Shown here: positions 339 through 18,556 of the stretch, in pieces
How the letters are laid out: every line of letters starts with the position of its first letter
Numbering within the stretch: the stretch's first letter is position 1
Assembly (NCBI GenBank): GCA_048882505.1
Contig: JBHLRO010000037.1
Coordinates: 1-21,955 of the forward strand
Origin: Candidatus Thorarchaeota archaeon
GTDB lineage: Archaea > Asgardarchaeota > Heimdallarchaeia > Hodarchaeales > Hodarchaeaceae
Length of the DNA stretch: 21,955 nt
Reading direction: 5' to 3'
Made by a program: the position numbers and the translations under genes
The notes under the pieces: model-generated
Seen by the model: only the letters and a program-made list of their open reading frames with translations
The model's database searches: none
Told to the model about the DNA's origin: nothing

Positions 339-407
339 GCGATAATGTATCTTCTCCCAATCTCGTTGGATTTGAGGAATTCACGACTTTGCGATCTAGC
401 ATTTCTT

Positions 408-569
408 TTCCTTTTAGATGCGTCATACGTCATCGATTGCCCATAGATTCACCAACCTCCCCTCCAACAGCAGATAAAACAGTCTTATGATGGCCTCGAC
501 TTTAATCCCGTCAATGAAATCCTCCGTCAGAGTGAACAGACAAGCATAAATCCAAGAACATAACAGTGA
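408..569 (+). pseudogene. R1 copy 1: decayed relic of the 3' end of a HerA-like ATPase gene
   Basis: Translates FLLDASYVIDCP*IHQPPLQQQIKQSYDGLDFNPVNEILRQSE, versus FPLDVSHEVDWSRIHQHPLQQQIKQSYDGLVFNPVNEMLRRSQ at the end of 12534..14705. Bases 459-533 vs 14625-14699 are 67/75 identical. In-frame TAG at 444-446, no start codon. Confidence 0.9.
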
Positions 570-592
570 CATGACCGGGTAAAAACGAGACA

Positions 593-1015
593 TTAGAGAA
601 CTATCAAGTAGATGTTATTTAGAGCCATTAGTGTGAATAGGAACGCCGAGACCCAGATGAAACTCTCGAATAACATCAAGAAAAACTTATTTTTGCTCGA
701 ACTCTTCTTTAGGTCTTTAAAATCGTTTTTGAGAAGGCCTCTTATCTGGGGGTCTCTTAATAATAGAAAAGGATAGATTGTCACTGGTAATCCAATGAAT
801 GCAAAGACCATGAGAAATAACACCTGTAAGAGATCCAGGAAAATCATTCCGGCCATTAGAAAAGCCCTAGTACGGAACAAATAGGTGATCGTAACTAAAT
901 TAATTGAAAATATGGCATACCAAGCTGTATATAATATTATTCCAGCTCCAGGGCGTTTTTTCTTCTCAATTGAGTCGATAAACGATCTCTCAAGAAGCTG
1001 AAACAATTTCATCAC
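593..1015 (-). CDS. Hypothetical integral membrane protein (about 3 TM helices)
   Basis: 140-aa ORF with GAGGAGTG RBS just upstream and three long hydrophobic segments. No family recognised. Confidence 0.7.
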   Translation of the reverse strand: MMKLFQLLERSFIDSIEKKKRPGAGIILYTAWYAIFSINLVTITYLFRTRAFLMAGMIFLDLLQVLFLMVFAFIGLPVTIYPFLLLRDPQIRGLLKNDFKDLKKSSSKNKFFLMLFESFIWVSAFLFTLMALNNIYLIVL

Positions 1016-1107
1016 TCCTCATCCCCGTATTACGAGAATTGGCTGCAAGGGTTCCTGGGAGGATCGGCCGCTTGAGGGCATCGATGTACTATGAAAAGAC
1101 AACCCCA

Positions 1108-1485
1108 TCAGTAATAGTAACTCCGATGGAGAAAATCTGCCTTGAGGTACAACCTCTTTGCCTCTTGATCCTTGGGGTTGATCTGAAGCACCTGATAAAA
1201 ACAATAGGCGGCCAGCTCCCAATTTCCCTCCTGGAAAAGGGATTTGCCCCGGTTCTTCCACGAAATCCATGAAACATCCTTCGTCATAATGAGCGGGGAA
1301 TCGCAATACGGACAATTATCCAGGTCAACCCATTTCACACTCTCAAAACAACTCTCACAGATCAATCTATGACATACTGGACATTCCACTCGATTATTGC
1401 TTCCTCCGTACGTCTCTCCACATAGGCCGCAGAAAAACGAATCTTCTAGGACTTCGGGATCGGTTTTCATTACTTGTCCTGGCAT
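1108..1485 (-). CDS. RING-like (C4C4) zinc finger plus single TPR protein
   Basis: C-x2-C-x12-C-x2-C-x4-C-x2-C-x11-C-x2-C (CGLC...CPVC...CESC...CPYC), followed by a 34-aa TPR motif WKNRGKSLFQEGNWELAAYCFYQVLQINPKDQEA. AGAAGGTA precedes the ATG. Confidence 0.8.
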   Translation of the reverse strand: MPGQVMKTDPEVLEDSFFCGLCGETYGGSNNRVECPVCHRLICESCFESVKWVDLDNCPYCDSPLIMTKDVSWISWKNRGKSLFQEGNWELAAYCFYQVLQINPKDQEAKRLYLKADFLHRSYYY

Positions 1486-1632
1486 TTACCTTCTCTGTTT
1501 ATATTCCGAGTAATCGAGAAGCACCATCTCGTTCTTTAAACTTCCTATCCCAGATATCCGTACAATTGGGTACCTGGAAAATGAGAACTATCTGCAATTA
1601 GAACAGTTTTAGGAGGCGATTGGTTGTTGGTT

Positions 1633-2328
1633 TTAACTATTGATCGGATTTCTAGCCCTATCTAACCAAAAAGCTACTCCCGCAAATGCTAGGTAGAAAA
1701 ATTCGGAGCCAAGAGCAAGACCTTGTAAATCAATACCAGGTGGTGGGCTAGAAGTAACAAAGGTAAGGAGACCCACTATAAGAACCAGTATGAAAAGATG
1801 CATGCCATACCTGCTCACAAAGCCAGTGCCTGACGAAGTCGAATAGGTATAAATCAAAAACCCACCCACCAGAAAAGCTGCCTCTAAAGTAAGCGCAATT
1901 AAGAGAAAATTCCATACTCCTAATCCGATTTTAAAGTCAATCCCAGGGATGATCAATAAATCGGGTGTATGAACCAAAAAATCCACTACATAGTGGGAAA
2001 AGACGGCAATTCCAATCAAAAGAGAAGTATGGGTCTTTTCTGCATCGGATTTTGATGAGGTTCTAAGGACCACATATCGAAAAACAGAAAAGCTTGCAAT
2101 CGCCCAGAGGAGTGTTCCTAAAAGACTATGAGTAAAGGGTAAATCATAGAGATCGAAAAAAGAAGCTTCAGTGAAGCCAGGCACCAGTCTCGCATTTTCA
2201 ATCCCAAGGATAAGGAAGAGAAAAAACGCAATATCAACCAACTGAACCGCGAAGAATAAGACTCCGAGGGATAGAGTCTGATCATACCTCTTTAACGCCA
2301 TTGAAATACCATAATGCCCGACAAACAT
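1633..2328 (-). CDS. Membrane-bound metal-dependent hydrolase (YdjM-like)
   Basis: N-terminal GH motif, xDI motif, FTHSL and SHYVVD His/Asp motifs set in multiple TM helices, the pattern typical of this family. Confidence 0.75.
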   Translation of the reverse strand: MFVGHYGISMALKRYDQTLSLGVLFFAVQLVDIAFFLFLILGIENARLVPGFTEASFFDLYDLPFTHSLLGTLLWAIASFSVFRYVVLRTSSKSDAEKTHTSLLIGIAVFSHYVVDFLVHTPDLLIIPGIDFKIGLGVWNFLLIALTLEAAFLVGGFLIYTYSTSSGTGFVSRYGMHLFILVLIVGLLTFVTSSPPPGIDLQGLALGSEFFYLAFAGVAFWLDRARNPINS

Positions 2329-2593
2329 CTTTAGACCGTCTCGTCAACCTTAAAACTGGAAATACGCTGGAAAACTCTGAATCGCCAGCTTTTCATTTAC
2401 TAAAACCTACCTAGGAATGGAGTTTTATGGATTTGGCTCATTGAATAAGGTAAGAAAGCTCACAGTCCAAGACTGAAAGAGAATAATATCTCCCTTCTTG
2501 CTAGAAATTTAACTCCCTCTGGCATTCGTGCCTTGTTTCTCGGGTCGATAAAGGCAATTCGAACTCTTCGTGCTTTTTTTTGGTAAGGTGCGC

Positions 2594-2659
2594 CCTAGAG
2601 AAATTCTCCGGATAATGCCATCCGTGTGATATCAAAAAGGGATTTCCTTGTAGTACCGC
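2594..2659. repeat. R2 copy 1: 66-bp dispersed direct repeat
   Basis: CCTAGAGAAATTCTCCGGATAATGCCATCCGTGTGATATCAAAAAGGGATTTCCTTGTAGTACCGC, 61/66 identical to 5449-5514. Confidence 0.9.
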
Positions 2660-2780
2660 CTTAAAAAACCGTCCTCCGCTATTATTGAATGTTCACTGGA
2701 TTCCGAACTCACTTGGGAATGGTGATAGTTAGATGTCCACAGTGGAAAAAAAAGAGAATGAAGAGCAGTTAGACAGGTCA

Positions 2781-3167
2781 TTACTCCGAGGTCTTGCTTG
2801 GCACCGCAAAAGAGATCGAAAAAAGATATTCGTGATATGCAAGATACCCGTATCTAGTCCCGTTTACCACCAATAACTCATTATTAATCGAGTCTATTTC
2901 TGACAATGAAATGCGTAGCCAAACACGCGTTTTATTTTGAGAGGGGTCAATAATCTGATCTATAGCTCGTTTCAGGGTAGGATTTGAGGTCAAATCATAT
3001 TCCGTGAGGTTAATATACTCATATTGAGCCGGATCTTCTTCAATGAGGTCAAGTGATATAACACCACCCTGATCAGGTAAATCTAGAACATAATACCCGA
3101 TAAAGGCAACCATGACAAGACCTAGCGTTGACAATGCCAGTAATGCAATAACCTTAGCTTTTCTCAT
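2781..3167 (-). CDS. Hypothetical secreted or membrane-anchored protein
   Basis: 128 aa with a basic N-terminus plus hydrophobic signal/anchor, then an acidic domain with N-x-S/T sequons (NLT, NKT, NGT). Confidence 0.7.
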   Translation of the reverse strand: MRKAKVIALLALSTLGLVMVAFIGYYVLDLPDQGGVISLDLIEEDPAQYEYINLTEYDLTSNPTLKRAIDQIIDPSQNKTRVWLRISLSEIDSINNELLVVNGTRYGYLAYHEYLFSISFAVPSKTSE

Positions 3168-3412
3168 TAAGGACGCTCCTGATTCCTTTAAACTACGTCA
3201 TCTGGTTCTTTTTTTCCCAGAAATAATATATAACAGCTCCTTTCTTTATGCCTATGCGAATTATTTCTTCAAGACTATCATTCCCCACTCCTCTCCTCCG
3301 AGGCTGGTGGTTAGGTTTACCACTCTACGTCGAAAATGAGATTGGGCTTCCCCTTTCAGTCTTATTGCAAGTGCCCCGACAGTCTCATTCTGATGTATGA
3401 CGAAAAACGCTT

Positions 3413-5299
3413 CTATCTAGGGCCCCCCTTCTCGCTTTTCTTTGATTGTTTCCTTTTGTAAAGCAATACAAGAAGAAGGCCCACTGTAGGTGGTGGAATC
3501 AACACCAGAGCAAAAATGACCATGAAGGATACAAAACGATTAAAGGGATTGAAAACAGGATTTTTGGGATCTAATAAGAATTGTCCCACTTCTTCTCCGT
3601 CCAGGGCCCCGTCATTGTCCGTATCAGGGTTAACAGGATCTGTAGCCAATTGAAATTCTTCATAATTGGTTAATCCATCACTGTCATTATCCAATAGGGC
3701 ATCACTAGGATTATTTGGATCAAAACCGTATCCTACCTCCCATCCATCAGGCAACTTATCTTCATCACTGTCAGGATTGGAGACATTGGTACCAAACCTG
3801 TCCTCCGAATAGTCAGATAAGAAATCTTGATCCTTGTCCACATATAATAGATTTCTGGTCCTGTCAAAAGACATTGTCCCCCCGTATCCTTGCCAATAAA
3901 TACGCTGCCCAGTAATCGGTGGATCAAGAACATAAAGACAACCATCCTCGCTCCCCACCACAATTTCCATATCCCCATCCCCATCGACATCGCCTAACGC
4001 GGGTGAAGAAACCACACCCGCACCAGTCTGGTAGGTCCAAAGACCTGAGCCATCCTCCCCATTGATGGCATGAATTTTACCATCCCAACGACCCACCACA
4101 ACCTCCAGCTTGTTATCTCCATCGATATCCCCCAATGCCGGCGAGGAATAGCCACCAGCATGGGGTGTGCTGTAAGCCCACCGCAAGGAGCCGTCCTCGC
4201 CATTTAAGGCATACACGCGTTGGCCATAGGTGCTCCCAAAGATCACTTCGAGCTGGCCATCGAGGTCAATATCACCTAATGCTGGCGAGGACCAAATATC
4301 CCCGGGGGTCTTGAACTTCCAGATCACAGTTCCATCTACCCCATTTAACGCGTACATGTGATCATCACCGCTGCCAAAGATGACATCTAGCATTCCATCG
4401 TTATTGATATCGTATAACGAGGGAGACGAAAAAGCAATAGTATCGGTCATGTTACGACTCCAAAGGAGCGATCCATTTTTGCCGTCAAACATATGGATTG
4501 AACTCCCGAAGGCCGGATTCTCCATGTGGGTAGGTCTGAAAGTGGATTGAATTACCACATTTAATATCCCATCACCATTCAAGTCTCCAACAGCAGGTGA
4601 GGTGCCCAAAAGTGAATCTCTTGTACTGAAATCCCACGAGAGCGAGCCATCCTCTCCGTTTAGCACGAACAAGTTGGGGGCACGTGCTAAAATCCCAAAG
4701 GTTACCTCATACTTGCCATCGCCGTCAAGGTCGATCACAGCGGGGGACGAAAAATCCAATCCACGATTGATTGCATATTTCCATAATATCGACCCATTTT
4801 CCCCATTAAGGGCATAAATGTAACTCTCACCTCCTCCTGAATCACCAATAACAATTTCTACTCTTCCATCGTTATCTAGATCTGCTACCGCTGGCGATGA
4901 ATCAAGTGTCCCACCCATTTGAAATGCCCACAATAATGCAGCTGTCTGACCATCTGCTGCATATAAAAATCCATCGCCACTCCCGAAAATGACCTCCAGT
5001 TCATCTTCATCTGCATCTAAATTCGCAAGGGCAGGTGAGGGAGTGACCGTGCCTTCTGTTCCGTATATCCATAGTGAAGGCGGTGCGGATGTTTTTAATG
5101 GCGATATATTAGCTTGATTGATGTGTGCTCGTTCATTAAACCTCCCTGAGGATGGAATCAACCCATTCCTATCGGTAACAAGAGACGTAGTAGAAATGAT
5201 GAAAATTATAAGAAAAACTGTACAGAAATGTCGCATCCTGAGATCAAACGAACGTTGCCCAACGGAATTTTGGCAGACAGTTCTTCCCATCATTTCCAC
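3413..5299 (-). CDS. Cell-surface FG-GAP/PQQ-like beta-propeller protein with thrombospondin-type-3-like Ca-binding repeats and C-terminal TM anchor
   Basis: Eight repeats of SSPAL.D.D.DG..E.V.GS.DG..YAL.G.DG..LW, then DxDxDGLxDxxE/DPxNPDTD repeats, then a hydrophobic helix and basic tail KRKQSKK. The true start may be the ATG at 5236 (MRHFCTVF..., signal-like). Confidence 0.88.
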   Translation of the reverse strand: MEMMGRTVCQNSVGQRSFDLRMRHFCTVFLIIFIISTTSLVTDRNGLIPSSGRFNERAHINQANISPLKTSAPPSLWIYGTEGTVTPSPALANLDADEDELEVIFGSGDGFLYAADGQTAALLWAFQMGGTLDSSPAVADLDNDGRVEIVIGDSGGGESYIYALNGENGSILWKYAINRGLDFSSPAVIDLDGDGKYEVTFGILARAPNLFVLNGEDGSLSWDFSTRDSLLGTSPAVGDLNGDGILNVVIQSTFRPTHMENPAFGSSIHMFDGKNGSLLWSRNMTDTIAFSSPSLYDINNDGMLDVIFGSGDDHMYALNGVDGTVIWKFKTPGDIWSSPALGDIDLDGQLEVIFGSTYGQRVYALNGEDGSLRWAYSTPHAGGYSSPALGDIDGDNKLEVVVGRWDGKIHAINGEDGSGLWTYQTGAGVVSSPALGDVDGDGDMEIVVGSEDGCLYVLDPPITGQRIYWQGYGGTMSFDRTRNLLYVDKDQDFLSDYSEDRFGTNVSNPDSDEDKLPDGWEVGYGFDPNNPSDALLDNDSDGLTNYEEFQLATDPVNPDTDNDGALDGEEVGQFLLDPKNPVFNPFNRFVSFMVIFALVLIPPPTVGLLLVLLYKRKQSKKSEKGGPR

Positions 5300-5448
5300 C
5301 CTACTGCAAGATTATCTTAAATCCCGTAGGTAGCCCTACGAGCATTACCCAATGAAAAACCAAGGAATAAAAATCCTTTTCCCATGGATCCAAACCCTCT
5401 AGAGGTTCTCCTTATGCGCCATCTACGGACACTAAAAACAGAGAATAG

Positions 5449-5514
5449 CCTAGAGAAACTCTCCGGATAATGCCATCCGCATGATATCAAAAAAGGATTT
5501 CCTCGTAGTACCGC
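5449..5514. repeat. R2 copy 2: 66-bp dispersed direct repeat
   Basis: CCTAGAGAAACTCTCCGGATAATGCCATCCGCATGATATCAAAAAAGGATTTCCTCGTAGTACCGC. Five mismatches to copy 1, all transitions. Confidence 0.9.
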
Positions 5515-5562
5515 TTCGATCGTTGCGTAAGCAACCACTTTTTTTTTCAAATCAAGGGAAGC

Positions 5563-5607
5563 TTTTATTCCTCGAAAGTTTTGGATTCGAAGGTTTGCCA
5601 CCTTCAC
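5563..5607 (-). pseudogene. Possible N-terminal relic of an OLD/SMC/AAA_15-type ABC ATPase
   Basis: GTG start gives (M)KVANLRIQNFRGIK, matching the usual first strands (MKI..I.I.NFRGI) of these ATPases. No Walker A follows. Confidence 0.4.
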
Positions 5608-5652
5608 ATGTTTTTTGAAATAATGTGTATTGAATGAAATAGTGATTGATTT

Positions 5653-6342
5653 ATGGTGAATGAGCTCAGGATTCAAATTCAACACGATTCTCCTCACCTT
5701 AATTTTTCAAAATCCTTCTTAGATACAGACCTTTATGGCTATTGCAATTCAAAATTCGATATATTAATGATTCCAAGTAAACTTAATGGACAAAAATTGG
5801 AAATAGCAAAAGAATATTATCCAAATACTCAGGATTGGAAAATTACAACTATTGAGAGTAATCCAACAACGATTTCATATATTAGCATGAACTGCCTGTG
5901 TGATAAAACGATAAATTCCCAGATACAACAACAAGGAGGAATATCCATTTATCCAATCCGATTTTCTAAAGGCTGGAGTCATTATCAGATCGTTTGTTTA
6001 GACAATTCCATATTATCGTCTGTGCTGCAAGTCTTACAAACCTATCCACACACAAAAATTAATTCGATAAGGGAATTAGAATCTAACGGGATTTTTCCTT
6101 CTCAAATGATATCTACTACGGAATTCACTAGTGATTTAACACAACATCAACTTTCAATCCTAATTAGGGCGTTTGAAGAAGGATACTATGAAATTCCAAG
6201 AAGGATTAGAACTCAAGACCTTGCGGTGGAATTTAAGGTCTCTAGGTACGCGGTGGAGAAAACTCTTCGAAAGGCCGAAAACAAGTTATTCACTTCACTC
6301 ATGCCCTATCTTTTACTTAAGAAGAGTTTAATCGAGAATTAA
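5653..6342 (+). CDS. Bacterio-opsin-activator-like (HTH_10) transcriptional regulator
   Basis: C-terminal LTQHQLSILIRAFEEGYYEIPRRIRTQDLAVEFKVSRYAVEKTLRKAENKL is the characteristic archaeal HTH_10 motif (LT.RQ...L..A...GY...PR...L..LA). Confidence 0.88.
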   Translation: MVNELRIQIQHDSPHLNFSKSFLDTDLYGYCNSKFDILMIPSKLNGQKLEIAKEYYPNTQDWKITTIESNPTTISYISMNCLCDKTINSQIQQQGGISIYPIRFSKGWSHYQIVCLDNSILSSVLQVLQTYPHTKINSIRELESNGIFPSQMISTTEFTSDLTQHQLSILIRAFEEGYYEIPRRIRTQDLAVEFKVSRYAVEKTLRKAENKLFTSLMPYLLLKKSLIEN

Positions 6343-6540
6343 ATCCGGAAATACGCAATTCTGAATAGATGTGTTGAATTTAGATCCTAAAAAATGAAGG
6401 AAATCGGAAGCTATTCTTGAGTCGATTTTTGTTTTTTACTTCCTTAGGCCTTACTCTCCTCTAGGAAACCGTCGGACACAGTACTCATGTCCTTATAATG
6501 TAGTTGCATATGCTACCAATCTCCTTTTCCCAATCAGAAG

Positions 6541-7467
6541 ATGTTGATATTTCATAAGTGTACTGCTAGTCTTAGGAGAGTTTATTATTTGGATCTGATC
6601 ATAATTGCTGTTTTCGCTCTCTTTTTACGAATCTTTTTGTTAGGCTCTGAAAGGATTTTCTTAAAACAGCTTGAAGAATATGATTCGGTGATAATCAGCG
6701 CGGTATTCTTTTTAACTGGATCCTTTTTCTTGCTCCCTATTTTTTTAGTAATCCCTCAAGAAACACTTCTAACAGGATTGGAGGATTTACAATTCGCGCT
6801 GATCAGTTCATTTATTTATACATTCGGCTTTTTTGCGTATGTAAAGGCATTATCTGAGGAGGATGCTTCTTTAATAGCTCCTCTTTATAACGCATCCCTA
6901 CTTTGGTTACTGGTATTAAGTGTACTTTTTCTAGGGGAGGATGTCGGAATATTCCGCGTATTCGGAGCATTTATAATGTTTATTGGAGTTTTTTTCTTAT
7001 ATCCTGGCAAAATCACAGAAAAATTCCATAAGATTCGAGAATCAAAAGCCTCTTTATTGATGATTGGAGGATCATTTTTTTTGGCATTGGGAAGGACAAT
7101 TGATACTTTCGCCATACGTACAATTGATTCAAGAGTCTATGCTTTCTCTATCCTTTTTTTTGCCGGACTGTTTTTCTTAGGTATTGCTATCTTTACCAAA
7201 AAGTGTAATGATGGCTTTCTTGCCTTGAAAAACGACCTCAAGACCATCCTTTGCGCTGGTTTTACTAATGGATGGGCTTATATTATGCTATTGATTGCGA
7301 TTGCCGGATTGGAAGTAACTGTTGCAGAACCCGCTTCCTTGCTCTCAGTTTTTGTTACCGCATTCCTAGCTAAATTATTTTTAAAGGAAGAAATCGAAGA
7401 GCGATTATTTGGCATGGTCCTAATGGTTTTAGGAGCCATTTTGTTGGTTATAAAGATACCAATATGA
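6541..7467 (+). CDS. EamA/DMT family transporter
   Basis: About 10 TM helices in two repeats, each ending in the DMT motif (LSVLFLGED; AKLFLKEE). The start may be the TTG near 6589 downstream of GGAG. Confidence 0.88.
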   Translation: MLIFHKCTASLRRVYYLDLIIIAVFALFLRIFLLGSERIFLKQLEEYDSVIISAVFFLTGSFFLLPIFLVIPQETLLTGLEDLQFALISSFIYTFGFFAYVKALSEEDASLIAPLYNASLLWLLVLSVLFLGEDVGIFRVFGAFIMFIGVFFLYPGKITEKFHKIRESKASLLMIGGSFFLALGRTIDTFAIRTIDSRVYAFSILFFAGLFFLGIAIFTKKCNDGFLALKNDLKTILCAGFTNGWAYIMLLIAIAGLEVTVAEPASLLSVFVTAFLAKLFLKEEIEERLFGMVLMVLGAILLVIKIPI

Positions 7468-7721
7468 CAAAGCGAGTAAGAAGTTTCGATTCAAGCTGTG
7501 TTATATAACGAAAAGGCCACCATTAATAGATGTATAAACGTCACGAACACTGAGTTTTAATTGACTATCAAAGCCCGTCTTACCGCAAATAACACAAACC
7601 CTCCGTGGAAACTCATACAATTGGCATTTCTTACGGTATTCGTGGAATCCGTGCAAAAAGCTTCCGGAGTGCCTTATATTTGCTTCGAGAAACTATCTAC
7701 TAAACGATGAAAACAATTGGT

Positions 7722-8468
7722 TTACAATGAAGTGACAACTATTCTCTCGATTAAACGCCCTTTTAAAGCCAGTGTCGTAATCAAACCTATAGTGCCCATA
7801 ACCAGTGATGTCGCAACTATTGGTCCCGTTGTCACTAGAATTGTCGGGTCGTCAATGATTACCATAAATAACAGTGGAATCCAATATGCAGAAATTATCG
7901 TAGCCACAAATATCAATACGACATACTTCTCTGAAAGGATTAGGGCAATGAGATATATTATATAACTTAGGGACAACGCAAGAACCAAAGCCAATCCTAA
8001 TATCATGATTATAAAAAATGGATCTAAAAAACCTACAAATAAAATCGTTGAAATGTAGTTCACGAATACGAATACGAATACCACGGTTAAAATGATCGGG
8101 GTCATGGCAACAAAACGGTAAAAGACTACCTCCAGTTTGGACATGGGAGCCATAAAGATTTGCTCCGTAACCTTGTCTATCTTTTCCGTTGAAATAAATA
8201 TAATAGAGGTGAAAGCCGCTATTGTAGCATACGTGGATGTAGATGAAATAAGCATTAATTTTACCATTTCGCCTATCAATGATTGTGGCACATCAGGGGT
8301 TAGCGGTGGTGAACCAGGGGGCAAGTCTAAAGATGTCAACAATTCATTAAGTCTACTTAGATATGCCCATTGGAGAAAAACAAACGGGATGATAAAAAGT
8401 AACATCTGAAATCTTATGGTTCTGAATATAAATCCTGTCTCATTGAGGATGAATCTTATTTTGTTCAT
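7722..8468 (-). CDS. ABC-2 type exporter permease (paralog 2)
   Basis: Multi-TM protein with EK.DKVTEQIFMAPMSKLEVVFYRF (ABC-2 permease E...gt.e.l...P.s pattern). Third gene of the ABC operon. Confidence 0.82.
   Translation of the reverse strand: MNKIRFILNETGFIFRTIRFQMLLFIIPFVFLQWAYLSRLNELLTSLDLPPGSPPLTPDVPQSLIGEMVKLMLISSTSTYATIAAFTSIIFISTEKIDKVTEQIFMAPMSKLEVVFYRFVAMTPIILTVVFVFVFVNYISTILFVGFLDPFFIIMILGLALVLALSLSYIIYLIALILSEKYVVLIFVATIISAYWIPLLFMVIIDDPTILVTTGPIVATSLVMGTIGLITTLALKGRLIERIVVTSL
8032..8178. repeat. 147-bp tract identical to 8840-8986 inside the paralogous permease
   Basis: Base-by-base identity over 147 nt (offset 808), while the flanking parts of the two genes are clearly diverged. 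Confidence 0.9.
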
Positions 8469-8529
8469 TTTTTCAGTCCTTAACCTCCATTCGAATTGAT
8501 TAAGGTCATAAACAGCTCCATATCCTAAT

Positions 8530-9216
8530 TTATACCGAAGTTACTACTATCCTTTCCACAAGACCTTTTTTTAGAGCTAATGTTGTAATAAACCCTATTA
8601 TACCTAGCAAGATCGATGTGGCAATTATTGGGGCCAGAATCATTTGCAGTGTTACTGGTTCTGTTGCTTCCATAAACATCGATGGCAATAAAAAGAAAAT
8701 CATGATTGCGAAGGTAAACATAAATGAAAGATACTTCTGAGAAAGAATTAACGAGGCATAATATGTCAAATAATTTAGCGGCAGCGCAAGTATCAAAGCC
8801 ATTCCTAATATCGAAACCACAAAAAATGGATCCAAAAATCCTACAAATAAAATCGTTGAAATGTAGTTCACGAATACGAATACGAATACCACGGTTAAAA
8901 TGATCGGGGTCATGGCAACAAAACGGTAAAAGACTACCTCCAGTTTGGACATGGGAGCCATAAAGATTTGCTCCGTAACCTTGTCTGCCTTTTCCATTCC
9001 AAGTATTATTGTTGAAGAGGAGGCCGCCATCATGGCATATACGGGGATATACCCGATAAATACTGGCTCTAACTCCGAAGATGAGGGGATTCGAGCAAAC
9101 AAGATTAGATAAGTCACTTGCACTAAAACTAGCAATATGATTAAAAAACTCGTCTGTCCTCTTATTGTTTTGAAGATGAATCTGGATTCATTGAGAATGA
9201 ACCTTATTTTTTGCAT
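8530..9216 (-). CDS. ABC-2 type exporter permease (paralog 1)
   Basis: Same motif as 7722..8468. N-termini are homologous (MQKIRFILNESRFIFKTIR vs MNKIRFILNETGFIFRTIR). Starts 6 nt after the ATPase stop. Confidence 0.82.
   Translation of the reverse strand: MQKIRFILNESRFIFKTIRGQTSFLIILLVLVQVTYLILFARIPSSSELEPVFIGYIPVYAMMAASSSTIILGMEKADKVTEQIFMAPMSKLEVVFYRFVAMTPIILTVVFVFVFVNYISTILFVGFLDPFFVVSILGMALILALPLNYLTYYASLILSQKYLSFMFTFAIMIFFLLPSMFMEATEPVTLQMILAPIIATSILLGIIGFITTLALKKGLVERIVVTSV
8840..8986. repeat. 147-bp tract identical to 8032-8178
   Basis: See 8032-8178. Includes a (CGAATA)3 microsatellite encoding VFVFVF. Confidence 0.9.
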
Positions 9217-9222
9217 TTTTGT

Positions 9223-10149
9223 TTACTCGGAGCTATGCAGCTTGGCATAAATCGTTTCCAAACTATCCTTTTCTATTCTGGTTTCATAGAGCATCAAACC
9301 TTTAGCAAGTAGCATCTGGGTCATACGAGGTATATCCTCTCTGCTGTCAACAGTTACCAGCAGAGCATCATCCACCTCAGCTACATCGTAAGCGTCCAAG
9401 ACCCGATAGGCTTTGGCATTATCACTAGTAGACATCTTTACCGATATCGTTTTCCGTTTAAGTTTTTCATACAATCCAACGATTCTTCCCGTGAATAAGA
9501 TTTCTCCCTCCTTGATCAGGGTCACATAATCACAAAGTTCTTCTACATCTCCCAGGATGTGTGTGGATATCAGGGAGGTTACTCCGTTGTTTCTTTGATT
9601 TATGAGAATCTCTTTCAAACGATGTCTCCATGTGGGATCAATGTTCTGTAAAAACTCATCCAAAATTATTAGTTGGGGTTTTCCCATCATCCCTCGGGCG
9701 ATTGCTACCCGTTGCTTTGTTCCTGCTGAAAGTTTCCTAATGGCTGTATCGCGGTATTCCACCAGGTCGAGTTGAACGATAATCTCCTCAACCAAGGAGG
9801 TGCAATCAGTAATATCATATAATCGGCAAAAGCGGATTAAATTATCTCTGACACTCAGGGAGGAATACAATCCTAAGTTCTCTCCAACATACCCGAGTTG
9901 GGTCTTGGAATACGGCTGATCTGATAACTCCGTACCAAATATCTCAATCTTTCCGTCGCTGGCCTTCAATAGGCCCAAAATAATCCGAAAAAGTGTCGTT
10001 TTCCCAGCGCCGTTATGGCCAATGAGGCCATGAATCACACCTCGAGGGACATCAAATGTTACATCTTTTAACACCGTTTTCTGCCCGAAGTTCTTGAAGA
10101 CATTTCGAATTTTGATAGCTGATACCGCTTCACTTATCACCCGACACAC
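9223..10149 (-). CDS. ABC-2 type exporter ATP-binding subunit
   Basis: Walker A GHNGAGKTT, signature LSAGTKQR, Walker B LIILDE, H-loop STH, and a C-terminal domain ending in SLETIY. The real start is probably the GTG a few codons downstream, after the GAGGTG RBS. Confidence 0.93.
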   Translation of the reverse strand: MCRVISEAVSAIKIRNVFKNFGQKTVLKDVTFDVPRGVIHGLIGHNGAGKTTLFRIILGLLKASDGKIEIFGTELSDQPYSKTQLGYVGENLGLYSSLSVRDNLIRFCRLYDITDCTSLVEEIIVQLDLVEYRDTAIRKLSAGTKQRVAIARGMMGKPQLIILDEFLQNIDPTWRHRLKEILINQRNNGVTSLISTHILGDVEELCDYVTLIKEGEILFTGRIVGLYEKLKRKTISVKMSTSDNAKAYRVLDAYDVAEVDDALLVTVDSREDIPRMTQMLLAKGLMLYETRIEKDSLETIYAKLHSSE

Positions 10150-11694: not shown

Positions 11695-11876
11695 TTTCCG
11701 CCCTAGTTGACGTCAGATGACCATTCCGTGAATAGATATAGGCCCCCAATACTTTGATATTGAACCAATTGGAAAATATTTTTAGGATGAATAGAATTTT
11801 CTCTCATAGCTCCTCGTACCTCTCAGAATGTTTTCAAAAACCGATTTGGCAAAATAAGCCTGGAAAAGAACTTCAG

Positions 11877-12335: not shown

Positions 12336-12533
12336 AATGTATTCCAAAAACGAAACACCCTATTAAGACGATTTCTTCCTGATATATTGATCGTGCAGTT
12401 TATTGGGCATTCGATCTTCTCATGATCAATAATTAGAAATTCTTTCGCTCTTTTCATGAGCTAATAAGTGAGACCTCCGGTTACCTAGCGATGAGTGTTC
12501 AGATAACATTCCTCCTTCCTGGAGATTTCAGAA

Positions 12534-14705
12534 ATGGTGAATAACTGGTTATCAACGGTTCCTGTGTTCCACTTTAAACATATTCCAAGTGAAGTGAACA
12601 AAGATAGTGTTAAGGTCTTTAAAAATACTAAACACCTCTTTTCCCTCGAGTATGAAATTTACGCGCCCAACACCGTCCATATCAACTTGATTCCGTTTTC
12701 CTCAGGACGATTTCGGAAACCAAAACTCGAACAGGGGCTCGCCATCACCCAACTCTTTGCTTCTGAAATGGGATTACACCAGGATTTTCATCTCATCCAA
12801 GATTGGCGCATCCAGGTGGTATTCCCGTTCTTACAGCGTCGCCTTCAGATCGAGAAGAACGGCATAGAGTTCTACTGTGGTGGAATCTATGGCAAAGAGG
12901 GTACAAAAGATCGTGTTTTCACCACTTCTTCGGGATTCACAGATAGTCTCCTTGAAATTTTGACCGATTCCCCTCACTTTGCGCTCCTTCAAATGCTGTT
13001 TAAAGCCGTCAAAGTTCCCAAAGAATTTCAGACGGAAGGGGAACAAGATAAACGTATCCCCCAGGTTCGTTTTGACATTCAAGCCGGAACTGTCAGTAAA
13101 CGGTACGGGGCCCCCCATATTAATGTCATGGAAGAGGCAGGATGTTTTGAATTTTCTCCCCGGATTCTTCTGGCCGAATCTTCCAAAGAACGATTGAAGG
13201 AGAAGTTGAATCGCGTGGCAGCGGTCTTTCAGACCTATGGATTCAAAGTAAAGGAAATCCCCACCTTTTTCCACCGCTTTGCTCGCTTTAAGGGCCAGTG
13301 CGCCTCTCGAAAAATGCTCTCCCCCATTCTTTTGGATGGCCATTCTCTGATGAACCTCATTGTTCCCCCTCAGCGGCAATATACGCACGATGGCTATTCA
13401 TTGGTTCCCAACAAAACCCACTACTCCTTGTCCGCTAATGTTTCGCCTCCTACCTCGCAACACACCATCAATTTTGGCATTCCAATCTTAAGTGGTAAAA
13501 CCAATCCTACGCCGCTCTTTGTCGATGGAAAAGACCTATGTCGTCATATGGCTGTGTTTGGGATGACAGGGGAAGGAAAAAGCCGATTTGTGTATGGTCT
13601 GCTCAAGGAGTTTTTCTTGAAAGGAGTCAAGTTTATCATTTTTGATCCAAAAGGCGAATATCTCCGTCCTGTCCAGAGCTTCTGTTCTAATGTCCTATAT
13701 CTAAAGCCAGGATCCATTGAGTTCCCCTGGGGAGTCAATATCTTTCAGGTTTCCAAAGATGAGCGTGGAGAAGATCTTATCCCTCTGGAAGATCATGTTC
13801 AATTCGTTGTCTCTGTTTTTGAGAACATCCTGGATGATTCCGATGGGGTGTCCCCGCAGATGCGGCGGATGCTTCACCTGGCCATCCTACGGACGATTCA
13901 AGATCGAGGAGACTTTCGAACCCTACTTGATTATCTGGACGAACCGACTGTCCTGGGATTGAAAGGGGCTTATATTGAAAATACGGCTGCAGGTTTACTG
14001 AATCGGATCGAAAAACTCTTTTTCGGTAATACCGGACGCTCCTTTTCGGTGGCGGAGACCACTTTCGAGATCGCAGAACTCCTGAATCGCAATGTTATCA
14101 TTGACCTATCTGCGTTTGAAAGCATGGAAGATCAACGTGGACGGAATCTGTTTCTTGAAGTGATCTTGCACTACCTCTACTACTTCCTCCGTCGATTTCG
14201 TGAACCGATCAAAGAAGAATCGCTACCTCAGAATACTTTGATCTTCGACGAGGTACAAAAGCTCCTTCCCACCCCGAAACGCTGGAGCCGTCAACCCGAA
14301 TCCATGATTGGCAAAGGGCCCTGGACATTGCGAGCATACGATATTTCTATGATTTTCATTGGCACGGACCCTGTAGTAGATCAACCTATGTTGTCCAATA
14401 CAGGCATTACCACCATCTTCTACACCAATTACAATCCCCAAGTGGTATCTAATATGTTGGGATTATCTTATCATGATTATGACCAGATGCGCCGTCTTCT
14501 CAAGGCTAAAAATGAAGACCGTCGGTGTATCATTTCCGTCAATGGCCAGTCGTCCTTACTCAAAACGAATGAATTCCCCTTGGATGTCTCCCACGAGGTA
14601 GATTGGTCTCGGATACATCAACATCCCCTCCAACAGCAAATAAAACAGTCATATGATGGCCTTGTCTTTAATCCCGTCAATGAAATGCTCCGTAGAAGTC
14701 AATAA
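12534..14705 (+). CDS. HerA/FtsK-superfamily ATPase (DUF87-type) with an uncharacterised N-terminal region of about 300 aa
   Basis: RHMAVFGMTGEGKS (Walker A), FIIFDPKGEY (HerA/VirB4 motif), NVIIDLS, LIFDEVQ (Walker B), LRAYDISMIFIGTD (Arg-finger region). Confidence 0.88.
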   Translation: MVNNWLSTVPVFHFKHIPSEVNKDSVKVFKNTKHLFSLEYEIYAPNTVHINLIPFSSGRFRKPKLEQGLAITQLFASEMGLHQDFHLIQDWRIQVVFPFLQRRLQIEKNGIEFYCGGIYGKEGTKDRVFTTSSGFTDSLLEILTDSPHFALLQMLFKAVKVPKEFQTEGEQDKRIPQVRFDIQAGTVSKRYGAPHINVMEEAGCFEFSPRILLAESSKERLKEKLNRVAAVFQTYGFKVKEIPTFFHRFARFKGQCASRKMLSPILLDGHSLMNLIVPPQRQYTHDGYSLVPNKTHYSLSANVSPPTSQHTINFGIPILSGKTNPTPLFVDGKDLCRHMAVFGMTGEGKSRFVYGLLKEFFLKGVKFIIFDPKGEYLRPVQSFCSNVLYLKPGSIEFPWGVNIFQVSKDERGEDLIPLEDHVQFVVSVFENILDDSDGVSPQMRRMLHLAILRTIQDRGDFRTLLDYLDEPTVLGLKGAYIENTAAGLLNRIEKLFFGNTGRSFSVAETTFEIAELLNRNVIIDLSAFESMEDQRGRNLFLEVILHYLYYFLRRFREPIKEESLPQNTLIFDEVQKLLPTPKRWSRQPESMIGKGPWTLRAYDISMIFIGTDPVVDQPMLSNTGITTIFYTNYNPQVVSNMLGLSYHDYDQMRRLLKAKNEDRRCIISVNGQSSLLKTNEFPLDVSHEVDWSRIHQHPLQQQIKQSYDGLVFNPVNEMLRRSQ

Positions 14706-14735
14706 GAGCGTACAGCTCCGAGTTCTCGTGGCTGA
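14574..14735 (+). repeat. R1 copy 2: 3' end of the intact ATPase gene plus 30 nt beyond its stop
   Basis: Core TTTAATCCCGTCAATGAAAT at 14667-14686, aligned TGA at 14733-14735. Confidence 0.88.
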
Positions 14736-14886
14736 ACCAGGATATAAACAGTGGATTGCTTTTAGTTCTTTTTTTAGGAAACACAGCCCTTTCGGTGGTC
14801 AACTTTTTAAACGAGCTTCTCTCCCCTTGAGCCAAGCTCCTGAAATCTCCTAGTCAACTCACAGAAAGTGACGGGGTATCCGTAGA

Positions 14887-16530
14887 ATGATCGTTAACGT
14901 CATTAAAGACCTGTTTGAGCATGGACAATTCCAGACCATCCACGATCGGCTCGCTCAACCAGACATCCAAACCAAAATCGCTGCGCTCAGCGAACCTGAC
15001 CAAATGGAACTCAGTTATTACCACAGCAATACCCTGATAACGTTGGGGGATTCCAAACATGGACTTCATGTGGCCACCGCCGCCCACACAATCCTTCAGG
15101 CAACAGACAAGAAGTCTCCGTTGCTTCTAGCATCATTGAGCTCTCAAATTCGTGCTTTGGAAAGCTTAGGGGAGATCGACCAAGCCCTGAAACTCCTCAA
15201 ACAGGGGGACCTGCTCTTAAAGGCGCTAACCATGGAAGATCGAGCGCCCCCCTCTGTATGGATTCCCGTCTTCAATCTAATCAAGGGGTCGTTTTGGGCA
15301 GATAATAACCAAAATCTCGCGTTAGACTCCCTTTCCCAGGCCCTAACTAGCTTTGAGAGCCTGGATACCCCGTCCCACCTGGCTGCTACTTTAGTGGAAA
15401 TAGGCTATGCCAATTACCACAAAGGGGAATATGATACTACGGTAGAATACTGCCAACGGGCGCTCGCTATATACGAAAAGTTAAAACACAACCGAGGGAT
15501 TGCAAGCGCATTTCTCATCATGGGGCTTGTCTATGACCGGAAGGGCGAAAGGGACACCATGGCCGAGTACTATCAACGCAGTTTAACGTTCGCTGAGGCC
15601 AGTGGCCTTTCACGCTGGATTGCCGTGACGTTAACGTATGTTGGGGTGGTCTATGTTGAAAAATCCGAGTATGATACCGCTTTAGGGTACTTACGACGAT
15701 CTTTATCCCTCGCGGAATCCCTAGATGACCAGGCGCGCATTGCTGATACCTCTGATATTATTGGTTGGGCGTATTATAAGAAAGGGGAGTTAGAGAAGGC
15801 CGACGAATATTGTCGAAAAAGCCTCCTTATTGCGAACCTTCTAGAGAACGCCGTGTTGCAGAGAAGAGGCTTAGTTCGTCTTATTCAGCTAGCTTTATCC
15901 CGCCAGGATCTCGTTCAAGCCCAAACATACCTGACTACCCTACAAAACCTAGCGACCAGGTCATCTAGCGAGGATATCCACTTCCGAAGCCGTCTAATGG
16001 AAGCGATGGTCTCCAAGGCCAGTCCACAGCTGACCGACAAAGTTCAAGCTCTAACCGTTCTAAAGCAACTGGTAACGGAGGAGCATTTTAGAAAACGATG
16101 GGATTTGGCAATGCAGTCCTTACTCCATCTGTGTGATCTTTTGATCTTTGAAGCACGAGCAACTGGGGAAGAAGAGGCCTGGGAAAAAGCGAAAACGTTT
16201 CTTGACCAGTTCTCCAACCGTGCCCAAAACAAAAAGGACTCTGAGTTTATGACAGAAGGCTTAGTGTTGCAAGCCAAATTTGCTCAGATTGACGGAGAGC
16301 TGCAACAAGCCCAAACCCACCTTAGTGAAGCCAAAGCGCTCGCCATGGGTCTGGATCAGCCCTTAATCGTAGCCCGGGTAGAAGCAGCACAAACACAATT
16401 GGCTACAGACTTCGAAAAATCGGCCGACTTAATCCGCCGGAACGCGCCCCTACAGGAACGGTTAATGGAGGCGCGCCTAGAAGAATATCTGCAGAGCGCA
16501 ATTCGTCAGGTAAAACACCATCACAGATAA
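14887..16530 (+). CDS. Tetratricopeptide repeat protein (MalT/TPR_12-like helical solenoid)
   Basis: Successive 40-aa-type repeats (e.g. LVEIGYANYHKGEYDTTVEYCQRALAIYEKL; FLIMGLVYDRKGERDTMAEYYQRSLTFAEAS; LTYVGVVYVEKSEYDTALGYLRRSLSLAESL). No catalytic domain recognised. Confidence 0.88.
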   Translation: MIVNVIKDLFEHGQFQTIHDRLAQPDIQTKIAALSEPDQMELSYYHSNTLITLGDSKHGLHVATAAHTILQATDKKSPLLLASLSSQIRALESLGEIDQALKLLKQGDLLLKALTMEDRAPPSVWIPVFNLIKGSFWADNNQNLALDSLSQALTSFESLDTPSHLAATLVEIGYANYHKGEYDTTVEYCQRALAIYEKLKHNRGIASAFLIMGLVYDRKGERDTMAEYYQRSLTFAEASGLSRWIAVTLTYVGVVYVEKSEYDTALGYLRRSLSLAESLDDQARIADTSDIIGWAYYKKGELEKADEYCRKSLLIANLLENAVLQRRGLVRLIQLALSRQDLVQAQTYLTTLQNLATRSSSEDIHFRSRLMEAMVSKASPQLTDKVQALTVLKQLVTEEHFRKRWDLAMQSLLHLCDLLIFEARATGEEEAWEKAKTFLDQFSNRAQNKKDSEFMTEGLVLQAKFAQIDGELQQAQTHLSEAKALAMGLDQPLIVARVEAAQTQLATDFEKSADLIRRNAPLQERLMEARLEEYLQSAIRQVKHHHR

Positions 16531-16606
16531 GACGAATTGACACTGACAGGCTGAGAGCACGCATCTAATTGATTCTTTAAATATGGAAAGACGTATGGAG
16601 CCCTGA

Positions 16607-16699
16607 AAAGAATCCTATAAAGCCCGCGTCTTCAACCCCGTCAATAAAATCTTATGACGGAGTCAACAGGAGCACACACCTCAGAAAAAACCGTATTGA
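16607..16699 (+). pseudogene. R1 copy 3: decayed HerA-like 3'-end relic
   Basis: Reads KESYKARVFNPVNKIL*RSQQEHTPQKKPY*. Core TTCAACCCCGTCAATAAAAT at 16631-16650. Bases 16628-16672 vs 18409-18453 are 38/45 identical. TGA at 16697-16699. Confidence 0.85.
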
Positions 16700-16840
16700 C
16701 ATAAATTGGGAAAACAGTTCTTCTAAGGTGCATATGTTGAAGGACTAATGCCATATTTCAATATAATAAACATTATTAATCCTTTAATTTTCTTCATTAC
16801 AATTCATTGAAAATCATTCGAAACAGAGGAATGTGAAAAT

Positions 16841-17491
16841 TTGTCGGGAAAAGCAATATTTGCAACTGTATTAATTTCTGTGATCGCTACAACCTCAATT
16901 GGTGTGTTTTTAATTCCTATTACTACTCCAATAATATCTAACATGTTTCCTGATTTGATACCACGATCTGGTGAAAATGCTACTACTGTCATCCAAAATA
17001 ATACCACCGTTAATATCCTAAATGATACAAATCTCATTCTCCAATCCCGCTACCTTGAAACGAGTTCAAAAGCTCAAATCTTTGATGAAAACACAACTTA
17101 TCAACCTATTCCAAACACAAATTTGTCAATAACTATCCAAGACAATTCAAAAATTTCAGTAGAATTCTCTAGCATCGTTATCCTTGGACGAGGACCTGGA
17201 CAAGTTGGATTTATGGCCATGTACATCCAGATTCGAGTGGGAAGCTTCAGTAATCGAACCTTGCAACCAGGCTACTTTTTCGCAACGGCAGCTGCTTCAT
17301 CGGAATCTTATTTCAATTACGTTCATGTCTATTTTGAAACGTCACCCTTATCCGCGGGAACATATGATATCACCACTCATTATAAGACGGGTAGCCCAGT
17401 AGCTGGGTCTAACATATATGAACTATCCGAAGGAGGAGGATCGCTGACCTTTCCACGCACCCTCCTCGTTCAAGAGATGAAAACCACCTAA
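16841..17491 (+). CDS. Membrane-anchored surface protein with beta-rich (jelly-roll-like) ectodomain
   Basis: TTG start after GAGGA, N-terminal TM, many N-x-S/T sequons (NAT, NNT, NDT, NTT, NLS, NRT), alternating beta-strand pattern. Confidence 0.72.
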   Translation: MSGKAIFATVLISVIATTSIGVFLIPITTPIISNMFPDLIPRSGENATTVIQNNTTVNILNDTNLILQSRYLETSSKAQIFDENTTYQPIPNTNLSITIQDNSKISVEFSSIVILGRGPGQVGFMAMYIQIRVGSFSNRTLQPGYFFATAAASSESYFNYVHVYFETSPLSAGTYDITTHYKTGSPVAGSNIYELSEGGGSLTFPRTLLVQEMKTT

Positions 17492-17590
17492 AGGTGCTCG
17501 ATATGGGAGATGGCTGAATTTCTTAAAGGAAATCAAGAATCCCCTCCATTGGCAATTAATACAATCCTCTGATGCCTTCCCTTTCTCACC

Positions 17591-17995
17591 TTATCCAATG
17601 ACCTGAAATTCAGCCTGTGTAAAATGGGAATCATAAGTAAACGCCGCGCCTATTTCCAATGATTGCATTACCACGAAACTTGTACAATCTGTGAAGCTAT
17701 AGGTCTTATCTTGACTCTCTTTAAACCATTCCCATGATTTTTTTTCTAATGCTTCCAATATCCAAATTATTCTGATATTGGATGAATTCCGGATCGCTTC
17801 ACCGATTTCGATAGCCTCTTCATGTGATACCCGCCTCCTAAGAAGAGTATAAAGCTCATCCAGAATATAGTTCGTGGTTACCATTTTTCCATACTTCCCG
17901 CCCCTAATTTCAGCTTCTACTCGGACTGCTGAAGAATGATTCACGTCATTTTTCACCTTAGAGGCAAAAAAAGCTCCTGTATCTATGAAAATCAA
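17591..17995 (-). CDS. vapC: PIN-domain toxin of a type II TA system
   Basis: IFIDTGAF, TTNYILDE, SFTDCTSF, FTYDSHF: the four conserved acidic PIN motifs. AAGGTGAT RBS with TTG start. Confidence 0.92.
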   Translation of the reverse strand: MIFIDTGAFFASKVKNDVNHSSAVRVEAEIRGGKYGKMVTTNYILDELYTLLRRRVSHEEAIEIGEAIRNSSNIRIIWILEALEKKSWEWFKESQDKTYSFTDCTSFVVMQSLEIGAAFTYDSHFTQAEFQVIG

Positions 17996-18031
17996 TTCAT
18001 CACCTTTGAGAATACCAATAAAAGAAATTAT

Positions 18032-18274
18032 TCATTCTCTTTTATAAATAATTTGATCTACTTCTTCTGATGCCTTCTCTTCCTTGAACTTCGACGTTAC
18101 CGCTAGATTAAAGTACGGATCGTTTTCGTCAATCGCGTCGCTCTTGAGTAGATTCAAAATTGCTCGTCTAACTGCTTCTTTGATTGAGATATCATGTTGA
18201 GTCGCATAATCAACCAGAATTGCATGCTCTTCCGGGGATAGAGTGGTTTGAACGACTTTTTCTTTCGACTTCAT
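18032..18274 (-). CDS. vapB: CopG/ribbon-helix-helix antitoxin
   Basis: VVQTTLSPEEHAILVDYATQHDISIKEAVRRAI (RHH pattern) with an acidic C-terminus, directly upstream of the PIN gene. Confidence 0.85.
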   Translation of the reverse strand: MKSKEKVVQTTLSPEEHAILVDYATQHDISIKEAVRRAILNLLKSDAIDENDPYFNLAVTSKFKEEKASEEVDQIIYKRE

Positions 18275-18275
18275 C

Positions 18276-18318
18276 TCACATCTCTCATATCGAATGCAAG
18301 ATGTGATTGATATAAACT
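18276..18318 (-). promoter_or_regulatory. vapBC promoter with inverted-repeat operator
   Basis: TCACATCT (18276-18283), N15, AGATGTGA (18299-18306), lying between a TTTATATC TATA-like box (about 18311-18318, - strand) and the vapB start. Confidence 0.55.
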
Positions 18319-18396
18319 TTCTGGTAGATCATTGATTTCTGCCGGAGAGCGTGTCATTTGCCATGAACTTACCCGCGTTTTCCCAACAGAAAGTTC

Positions 18397-18480
18397 TACG
18401 ATAGCCTTGTCTTCAATCCCGTCAATAAAATGTTACGCTGGAGCCAACATGAGAGTACAACTCCAAGAAACTCACGTTGA
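18397..18480 (+). pseudogene. R1 copy 4: decayed HerA-like 3'-end relic
   Basis: Reads YDSLVFNPVNKMLRWSQHESTTPRNSR*. Core TTCAATCCCGTCAATAAAAT at 18412-18431. TGA at 18478-18480. A partly deleted CAACAG segment lies upstream (about 18382-18396). Confidence 0.85.
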
Positions 18481-18556
18481 ATTAGGAAATTTTAGAGTTT
18501 AATTGAAATACATTAAACATCCCGTGCAACAAAGAAGAGACACGTCCCAGGCCGCC

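Follow-up and report, generated by a model that had tools for sequence, protein, structure and literature searches.

Displaced 3' ends of a VirB4/HerA-like ATPase gene in a Hodarchaeales genome: possible scars of repeated, additive gene gain

Introduction

Why should the last few dozen codons of one ATPase gene recur in the intergenic gaps of an archaeal contig, always on the same strand? We addressed this question in a 21,955-nt stretch of DNA (hereafter the window), which is the entire contig C37 of a Candidatus Thorarchaeota archaeon of the order Hodarchaeales (genome G000, a 4.32-Mb metagenome-assembled genome (MAG) of 83 contigs, with 41% GC and 94.6% completeness). The window carries an intact VirB4/HerA-like ATPase gene together with partial copies of its 3' end. 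A first-pass annotation of this DNA had counted four such copies, traced them to coding alleles and proposed that the gene end is an attachment site or recombination hotspot with CCCGTCAAT as crossover core. Here we describe a set of six or more leftover copies, all on one strand, that each comprise the last 20-80 codons of the gene, and we consider it moderately probable that they are scars of additive gene gain, in which circular DNA was repeatedly inserted by single-crossover homologous recombination. The main comparison was with the sister species G016, an independent MAG with a fragmented assembly (contigs of 3-12 kb); every genome compared in this work is a MAG.

Leftover ends of a coding gene

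The 20-mer TTYAAYCCCGTCAATRAAAT occurs four times in the window (at 501, 14667, 16631 and 18412), each time on the + strand, against an expectation of 0 from shuffled sequences. A repeat search recovered a 4-copy family of 76 nt with 68-78% identity to the gene copy, as well as a 129-nt pair (408-536 and 14574-14702) of 78% identity, and tblastn with the ATPase protein placed copy c1 at 408-536 (amino acids (aa) 681-723, 70% identity, E 7e-13), c4 at 18388-18447 (aa 704-723, 70% identity) and c3 at 16607-16666 (aa 704-723, 65% identity). Overall, the window copies, of which c2 is the end of the intact gene itself, align over 76-129 nt with 68-90% identity. Evidence for a further degenerate copy, c5', is weak, with 73% identity over 40 nt in the repeat search and an nhmmer E of 0.82 genome-wide, its G016 ortholog scoring 0.012. 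The four copies reported earlier are thus confirmed, within an array that proved larger than first described.

The orphans c1, c3 and c4 are intergenic and have no start codon, and in-frame stops occur in two of them, as the first-pass annotation had also read (c1, with a TAA, and c3). All copies extend ~30 nt beyond the TAA of the gene to an aligned TGA (567-569 in c1, which has an orthologous copy on contig C136 of G016), and the G016 ortholog of the ATPase, with 95% aa identity, likewise reads on to TGA; the copies therefore end where the ancestral open reading frame (ORF) ended. In the G000 gene, the present TAA precedes the ancestral TGA (14733-14735) by 10 codons, and at the position of this TAA (window 14703-14735) c1, c3, c4 and the G016 ortholog carry a Gln, His or Arg codon. 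Since the G016 ortholog continues to TGA, the G000 gene has gained a premature stop, and its protein is 10 residues shorter. Differences summed over all pairs of copies were distributed 123/121/189 over the three codon positions, and 59/50/100 over the first 60 nt. This third-position excess indicates descent from coding alleles, in line with the earlier proposal, and it supports the interpretation of the copies as leftover 3' ends of coding ATPase alleles.

The array appears to continue on another contig. Read in reverse complement, the initial 77 nt of contig C6 match those of C37 exactly, and because of this overlap of both contig ends the two contigs probably abut. Two further copies were located on C6 (Table 1), and profile searches returned two still weaker candidates, also on the array strand. 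Assuming that C6 abuts C37, the array comprises six to eight one-strand copies over ~125 kb, which vary in length (82, ~50 and ~30 aa).

In a profile search of 22 genomes of the genus, this type of copy was confined to G000 (6) and G016 (5). A metagenome scan with the 20-mer gave 50 matches, of which contig L108 alone was related and the others were due to chance; the copy on L108 is short, and downstream of it lies the T-rich stretch found in G000 after c2. It shares its 5' limit with c3 and c4, and the genes upstream of these three short copies are unrelated. Because orthologous copies exist in the independent MAG G016 and another in L108, the copies are not assembly artefacts, an option that the first-pass annotation had left standing. 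A genus-wide pattern search with 2 mismatches allowed was discarded, as its matches were no more numerous than those of the reversed control.

The parent gene matches Pfam DUF87 (the HerA central domain). Its NCBIfam matches, to CedD (3e-15) and to a VirB4-like model (9e-11), are weak and both far below curated cut-offs. A structural model of the N-terminal 330 aa (pLDDT 76.5) had TrwK/VirB4 of plasmid R388 as its top Foldseek matches (E 1.8e-5, TM 0.42-0.46). Because of the DUF87 match, the weak CedD and VirB4 matches and the resemblance of the N-terminal model to TrwK/VirB4, the gene, previously labelled HerA-like, is better described as VirB4/HerA-like. With a HerA/VirB4-type P-loop core and a predicted VirB4-like N-terminal domain, it belongs to the VirB4/HerA-FtsK superfamily; no partner genes of a secretion or import system were recognised.

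Copies and gene content in the sister species

At one core locus, G016 and G000 share 92% identity and complete synteny across 11.5 kb. In the window they share only four blocks at the threshold of at least 89% identity (range 89-94%; Table 1), and because G016 differs outside these blocks, the region is a hypervariable island, with an unremarkable base composition. Three of the eight block ends fall inside copies, which make up ~3% of the window (binomial P ~1e-3), indicating that the copies are preferred, recombination-prone exchange points. In fine alignments, the orthology breakpoints lie at ~-10 nt (c1), +28 (c2) and +53 (c4) relative to the start of the core, so the exchange point is not fixed. 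The hotspot part of the first-pass proposal is therefore upheld, whereas CCCGTCAAT as a fixed crossover core is not, given scattered breakpoints and no recombinase nearby: block content does vary between the two species at the copies, but the junctions do not sit exactly at the core.

From c2 onwards the array reads c2, a TPR gene, c3, a gene for a 216-aa protein, c5', vapBC and c4. Each of the blocks c2-c3, c3-c5' and c5'-c4 consists of a single gene or operon of 0.8-1.9 kb, and at that size could not have carried an integrase. The first of them lies in a stretch (window 14703-16761) that has no match in G016. As the earlier annotation had anticipated, the copies bound small gene blocks and coincide with differences in gene content between related genomes. 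Further upstream the intervals are longer: 14 kb of accessory genes separate c1 from c2 (an FG-GAP surface protein, an HTH regulator, an EamA transporter, an ABC transporter, two anchored proteins and the ATPase), and a 26-kb stretch with a complete chemotaxis operon and a TFB gene lies between the 82-codon C6 fragment and c1.

Table 1. Coordinates of the ATPase gene, its copies, the blocks between them, the segments shared with G016 and stranded 3' ends of other genes in G000 (window positions unless a contig is given)
Feature	Coordinates	Strand	Remarks
Intact VirB4/HerA-superfamily ATPase gene, 723 aa	12534..14705	+	Pfam DUF87, 4.5e-17
Orphan copy c1, longest in window	389..572	+	~aa 675-733 of ancestral gene; nhmmer E 4e-44
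Copy c2, 3' end of intact gene with 30-nt former coding tail	14553..14737	+	G016 orthology stops within, ~14695-14702
Orphan copy c3, short form	16559..16702	+	In-frame TGA; clear homology from ~aa 702-705; E 9e-27
Probable degenerate copy c5', between cassette 2 and vapC end	17539..17576	+	Weak
Orphan copy c4, short form	18336..18484	+	G016 orthology stops at 18471; TGA at 18478-18480
C6 copy, 82-codon fragment (26326-26568)	C6:26290-26571	-	Just after two aldo-keto reductase genes; same strand as array once C6 is joined
C6 tail-fragment copy	C6:103613-103705	-	nhmmer E 1e-4, model R1 E 4e-5; same strand as array once C6 is joined
Cassette 1, MalT-like TPR protein, 547 aa, between c2 and c3	14887..16530	+	Not found in G016
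Cassette 2, 216-aa protein	16841..17491	+	One N-terminal membrane helix; no family match; orthologous in G016 C124
Cassette 3, PIN-domain toxin (17591-17995) and antitoxin (18032-18274)	17591..18274	-	Pfam PIN 7e-11; weak DUF6290
G016-shared block, c1 and sequence after it	458-1584
G016-shared block, EamA region	5881-7503
G016-shared block, ATPase gene	12450-14702
G016-shared block, 216-aa gene, vapBC and c4	16762-18471
Stranded 3' end, 0.1-10 kb downstream of intact gene	C3:225346-225591		Same strand as gene
Stranded 3' end, as above	C5:114448-114579		Same strand as gene
Stranded 3' end, as above	C22:51868-52029		Same strand as gene
Stranded 3' end, as above	C31:22049-22234		Same strand as gene
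Stranded 3' end, as above	C6:129970-130107		Same strand as gene
Stranded 3' end, as above	C1:361011-361245		Same strand as gene
Stranded 3' end, as above	C2:62956-63253		Same strand as gene
Stranded 3' end, as above	C11:64390-64596		Same strand as gene
Stranded 3' end, as above	C17:21509-21712		Same strand as gene

Similar scars at other genes

A genome-wide tblastn scan of 3235 ORFs against G000, from which contig-end artefacts and matches inside larger ORFs were removed, yielded 12 C-terminal, 3 N-terminal and 2 internal orphan fragments within 15 kb of their parent genes. Ten of the 12 C-terminal orphans lie downstream of the parent on the same strand. In all, ten other unrelated genes have a stranded 3' end, parted from the intact gene by unrelated genes and with no motif in common (Table 1). 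The parents and inserts checked with Pfam are ordinary metabolic or transport genes, and the checked parents include Pirin, a uridine-kinase-like gene, DUF362, RibD_C and an aldehyde dehydrogenase. Among the checked inserts are SDR and dienelactone hydrolase (DLH) genes, a cupin, an ArsP permease and NhaA, and no sequence is common to them. That 3' orphans outnumber 5' ones may be an effect of selection, since a 5' orphan keeps its promoter and start codon.

The Pirin locus shows both states. G016 has a single Pirin-SDR pair, corresponding to the empty site, and G000 has Pirin, a foreign SDR (~70% to G016), DLH, a duplicate of the Pirin 3' end and the resident SDR (90% to G016). The duplicate consists of the last 249 nt of the gene, and over its first 200 nt it matches the end of the gene itself with 99-100% identity. 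This is the arrangement that a single crossover with a circle carrying the Pirin end and alternative downstream genes would produce, with no recombinase involved. At the uridine-kinase-like locus on C5, G016 already carries the orphan.

A possible route of additive gene gain

By extension to the ATPase gene, the steps would be as follows. A circular DNA from a related strain, comprising the last ~100-250 nt of the VirB4/HerA-like gene and that strain's downstream gene or genes, would join the resident gene end by a single crossover. The ATPase gene would stay whole with a hybrid or new end, the cassette would come to lie behind it, and the old end would be shifted downstream, 5'-truncated and silent; repeated insertions would build an array. 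Once several copies were present, recombination between them could loop out circles of one copy and one block, which could reinsert at any other copy. Such loop-out and reinsertion would be the reason why some copies lie upstream of the intact gene, why the short copies have a common 5' limit and why blocks are shuffled between G000 and G016. Neither a dedicated recombinase nor a fixed crossover site would be necessary, and the 20-23 nt core would simply be the longest stretch still identical among diverged copies, near which exchanges would tend to resolve. The circular intermediate, the single crossover and the order of events are the parts that we infer.

Several observations weigh against this route. 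With 70-90% likeness, the copies make poor substrates for homologous exchange, unless the events are old or the partners then resembled each other more closely, and extra steps are required for those copies (c1 and the ones on C6) that precede the intact gene. The scars of the ATPase gene far outnumber those of any other gene, which the route leaves without explanation. The join between C6 and C37 is based on a 77-nt overlap, some of the breakpoints could partly reflect the fragmentation of the G016 assembly, whose short contigs yield no clean empty site at the ATPase locus, and, as G000 is 94.6% complete, an unbinned contig could hold a recombinase.

If additive gain by homologous recombination is nonetheless the cause, the locus and the ten similar scars suggest that accessory genes are often added beside an existing gene by plain homologous recombination. 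Such additive insertion needs no integrase or transposon and leaves a datable scar, the displaced gene end, from which gene gains in uncultured lineages could be counted and put in order. Conversely, gene-end direct repeats around small blocks should not be taken for attachment (att) sites unless a recombinase and a fixed junction are shown.

Alternative explanations

One alternative, which we regard as unlikely, is site-specific attachment, in which elements bearing a substitute gene end would insert at the fixed core CCCGTCAAT, served by a recombinase that acts in trans or has been lost, with tandem insertions leaving displaced ends behind. The 20-nt block, which shows little or no variation among the four window copies, G016 and L108, would suit such a core; the first-pass annotation had stressed its invariance, which does hold for CCCGTCAAT in the four window copies but not in the G016 ortholog of c4, which reads CCCGTCCAT, nor in the two C6 copies, the older ones, where the core is largely decayed. 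Because F712 and P714 are invariant across the ATPase protein family, much of the core's conservation is explained by inherited protein constraint. The common 5' limit of the three short copies is what an element-borne attP would leave, and a difference in block content at the copies between G000 and G016 would also be expected, but the breakpoints at -10, +28 and +53 define no single site, and the copies have no conserved hairpin or inverted symmetry (RNAalifold on 8 copies predicts 0 pairs).

The enzyme that site-specific attachment calls for could be the single tyrosine recombinase (PF00589) of the assembly, which lies on contig C5 and could act in trans; assembly-wide, neither a serine recombinase (PF00239) nor a reverse transcriptase (PF00078) was found. 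However, the island itself, as annotated over ~58 kb (Pfam searches of the larger ORFs of the window and of the annotated 36 kb of C6), has no integrase, integrase remnant, transposase or reverse transcriptase, and the cassettes of 0.8-1.9 kb hold ordinary genes. A scan of viral contigs with the 20-mer gave one match, which has no wider similarity and is due to chance. The ten other genes with the same scar and no common motif also argue against a dedicated site. Finally, under the analogy with SCCmec and SGI1 drawn in the first-pass annotation, the array should have the intact gene at its left edge, but no fewer than two copies precede that gene here.

Equally improbable, in our view, is independent decay, by which the copies would be the last remnants of full-length tandem or dispersed ATPase paralogs whose 5' parts were deleted and overwritten. 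The family is multi-copy in the genus, and relatives (G007 C37, G001 C77 and G011 C3) hold N-terminal, internal and C-terminal ATPase fragments, but in G000 the search found C-terminal pieces and no N-terminal or internal ones. The first-pass annotation had named longer, decayed paralogs as the finding that would overturn its reading, and G000 does not present it. Decay would account for copies of different length, but every copy reaches exactly the ancestral stop, and three share their 5' limit. Likewise, two intact genes in tandem would be an expected intermediate of some insertion routes, but the intervals of the series c2-c3-c5'-c4 are shorter than one ATPase gene, each with an unrelated gene, and all copies lie on one strand. 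The genome-wide ratio of 12 C-terminal to 3 N-terminal orphans also argues for a directed process or a filter. At 27 other loci of the family, taken with 10-kb flanks, orphan pieces were rare, and a same-strand set was found only in G007, with N-terminal pieces included; paralog decay fits relatives such as G007 better than G000.

We give still less credence to a more ambitious extension, according to which the 3' end of the VirB4-like gene would be a gene-capture platform of Hodarchaeales, recombinase-free or served in trans, a functional integron analogue whose single-gene cassettes, each bearing a ~100-nt gene-end repeat as a tag, would be cut out as circles and pass between strains. Such a platform might be coupled to a role of the ATPase itself in DNA import.

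Very improbable is a selected DNA or RNA element (a protein-binding site, a terminator or a small RNA) kept wherever the gene end was copied: the core is indeed more conserved than the remainder of the copy, and the L108 copy keeps a post-stop T-rich stretch like that of c2, but the window has no Rfam match and the copies no consensus structure, the orthologous orphans of G000 and G016 differ at about the genome baseline, core included, the core encodes residues invariant in the protein family, and the codon-position bias indicates protein constraint. A diversity-generating retroelement or retro-copy was rejected, as the assembly has no reverse transcriptase, the mismatches between c1 and c2 are of all kinds and not adenine-specific, and there are six or more diverged copies. 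An integron was rejected too, as no IntI-type integrase was found and the copies lack an attC-like palindrome.

Relation to known systems

Islands such as SCCmec (in rlmH/orfX), SGI1 (in trmE) and e14 (in icd) insert into a gene's 3' end, supply a substitute end and use a dedicated recombinase with a short fixed crossover. The present locus is similar in that the gene is kept intact, the displaced end lies beyond the insert as a direct repeat and tandem accretion is possible. It differs in that no nearby recombinase or fixed site was found, the blocks are single ordinary genes and the intact gene is off the array edge.

A closer parallel is the displacement of rhs C-terminal ends, for which homologous recombination with circular intermediates has been proposed (Jackson et al. 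2009, PMC2935791). As with orphan cdiA-CT and rhs-CT modules, 5'-truncated 3' fragments occur on the same strand as a full-length gene, each beside different genes; as in rhs, there is no dedicated recombinase, and array content varies among close relatives, the points of exchange lying within shared homology. In rhs/cdi, however, the variable toxin tip is displaced and the homology lies upstream, whereas here the conserved end (the FNPVN... tail) is displaced and the variable genes follow the stop. Moreover, no toxin/immunity logic is apparent here except for one vapBC pair, the parent is an Asgard VirB4/HerA-like ATPase gene, and copies also occur upstream of the intact gene. By analogy, the locus would thus work like rhs displacement, but it is not a polymorphic toxin locus of the rhs/cdi type.

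Integron cassette arrays have been reported in Archaea (PMC9668308). The array resembles them in its single-gene cassettes on one strand, each followed by a ~100-nt repeat, with a toxin-antitoxin cassette among them. It differs by the lack of an IntI-type integrase, of attI and of an attC-like imperfect palindrome, its repeats being pieces of coding sequence.

Further observations on the locus

Other ideas about the ATPase and its neighbours were not borne out. Synteny with rps12/nusA is true for a paralog on C16 only and fails for relatives. A defence system of HerA with a swapped effector was rejected, as PADLOC gave weak HerA and mad8 matches to the ATPase core and a generic TPR match only, and the neighbour genes are not conserved across the 27 other loci. 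A conserved module of vapBC plus copy was also discarded, since the PIN toxin-antitoxin pairs before c4 and before the L108 copy are mutually unrelated.

In several relatives, the VirB4/HerA-like gene is immediately preceded by a conserved ORF of ~108 aa (L008:1118-1447, L010:1134-1466, L009:3759-4082(-), L012:3673-3999(-) and L013:3738-4061(-)); this ORF is absent upstream of the window gene. In G007 (locus L031, C37:65000-84500), a full-length ATPase gene is followed on the same strand by an N-terminal fragment (aa 3-72), a 22-aa tail (91% identical), a C-terminal fragment (aa 629-724) and another N-terminal fragment, interspersed with NosD, LRR, NYN and radical-SAM genes; no integrase was seen there.

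At the 77-nt end overlap of C6 and C37, the assembler may have halted at a branch point. No tRNA gene was found in the window. After c4, G000 has an FG-GAP surface protein, and G016 has ATP-grasp, B12-binding radical SAM and Ras-family GTPase genes (L027, C124:2079-5449). The 891-aa FG-GAP protein gene (19132-21807, -) contains three tandem 27-nt units (19204-19284). A 125-aa protein with a RING-like zinc finger and one TPR unit is encoded at 1108-1485 (-). Tandem ABC-2-type permease paralogs (7722-8468 and 8530-9216, -), which adjoin an ABC ATPase gene (9223-10149), share a 320-nt stretch of 84-87% identity.

A second direct repeat in the window, of 66 nt and 92% identity (2594-2659 and 5449-5514), surrounds a 2.8-kb block with a 128-aa gene and an FG-GAP protein. 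On the - strand, both copies resemble an ORF end stopping at TAG, and related copies occur on G016 contigs C93, C111 and C125. This repeat looks like the same type of scar, left by another gene.

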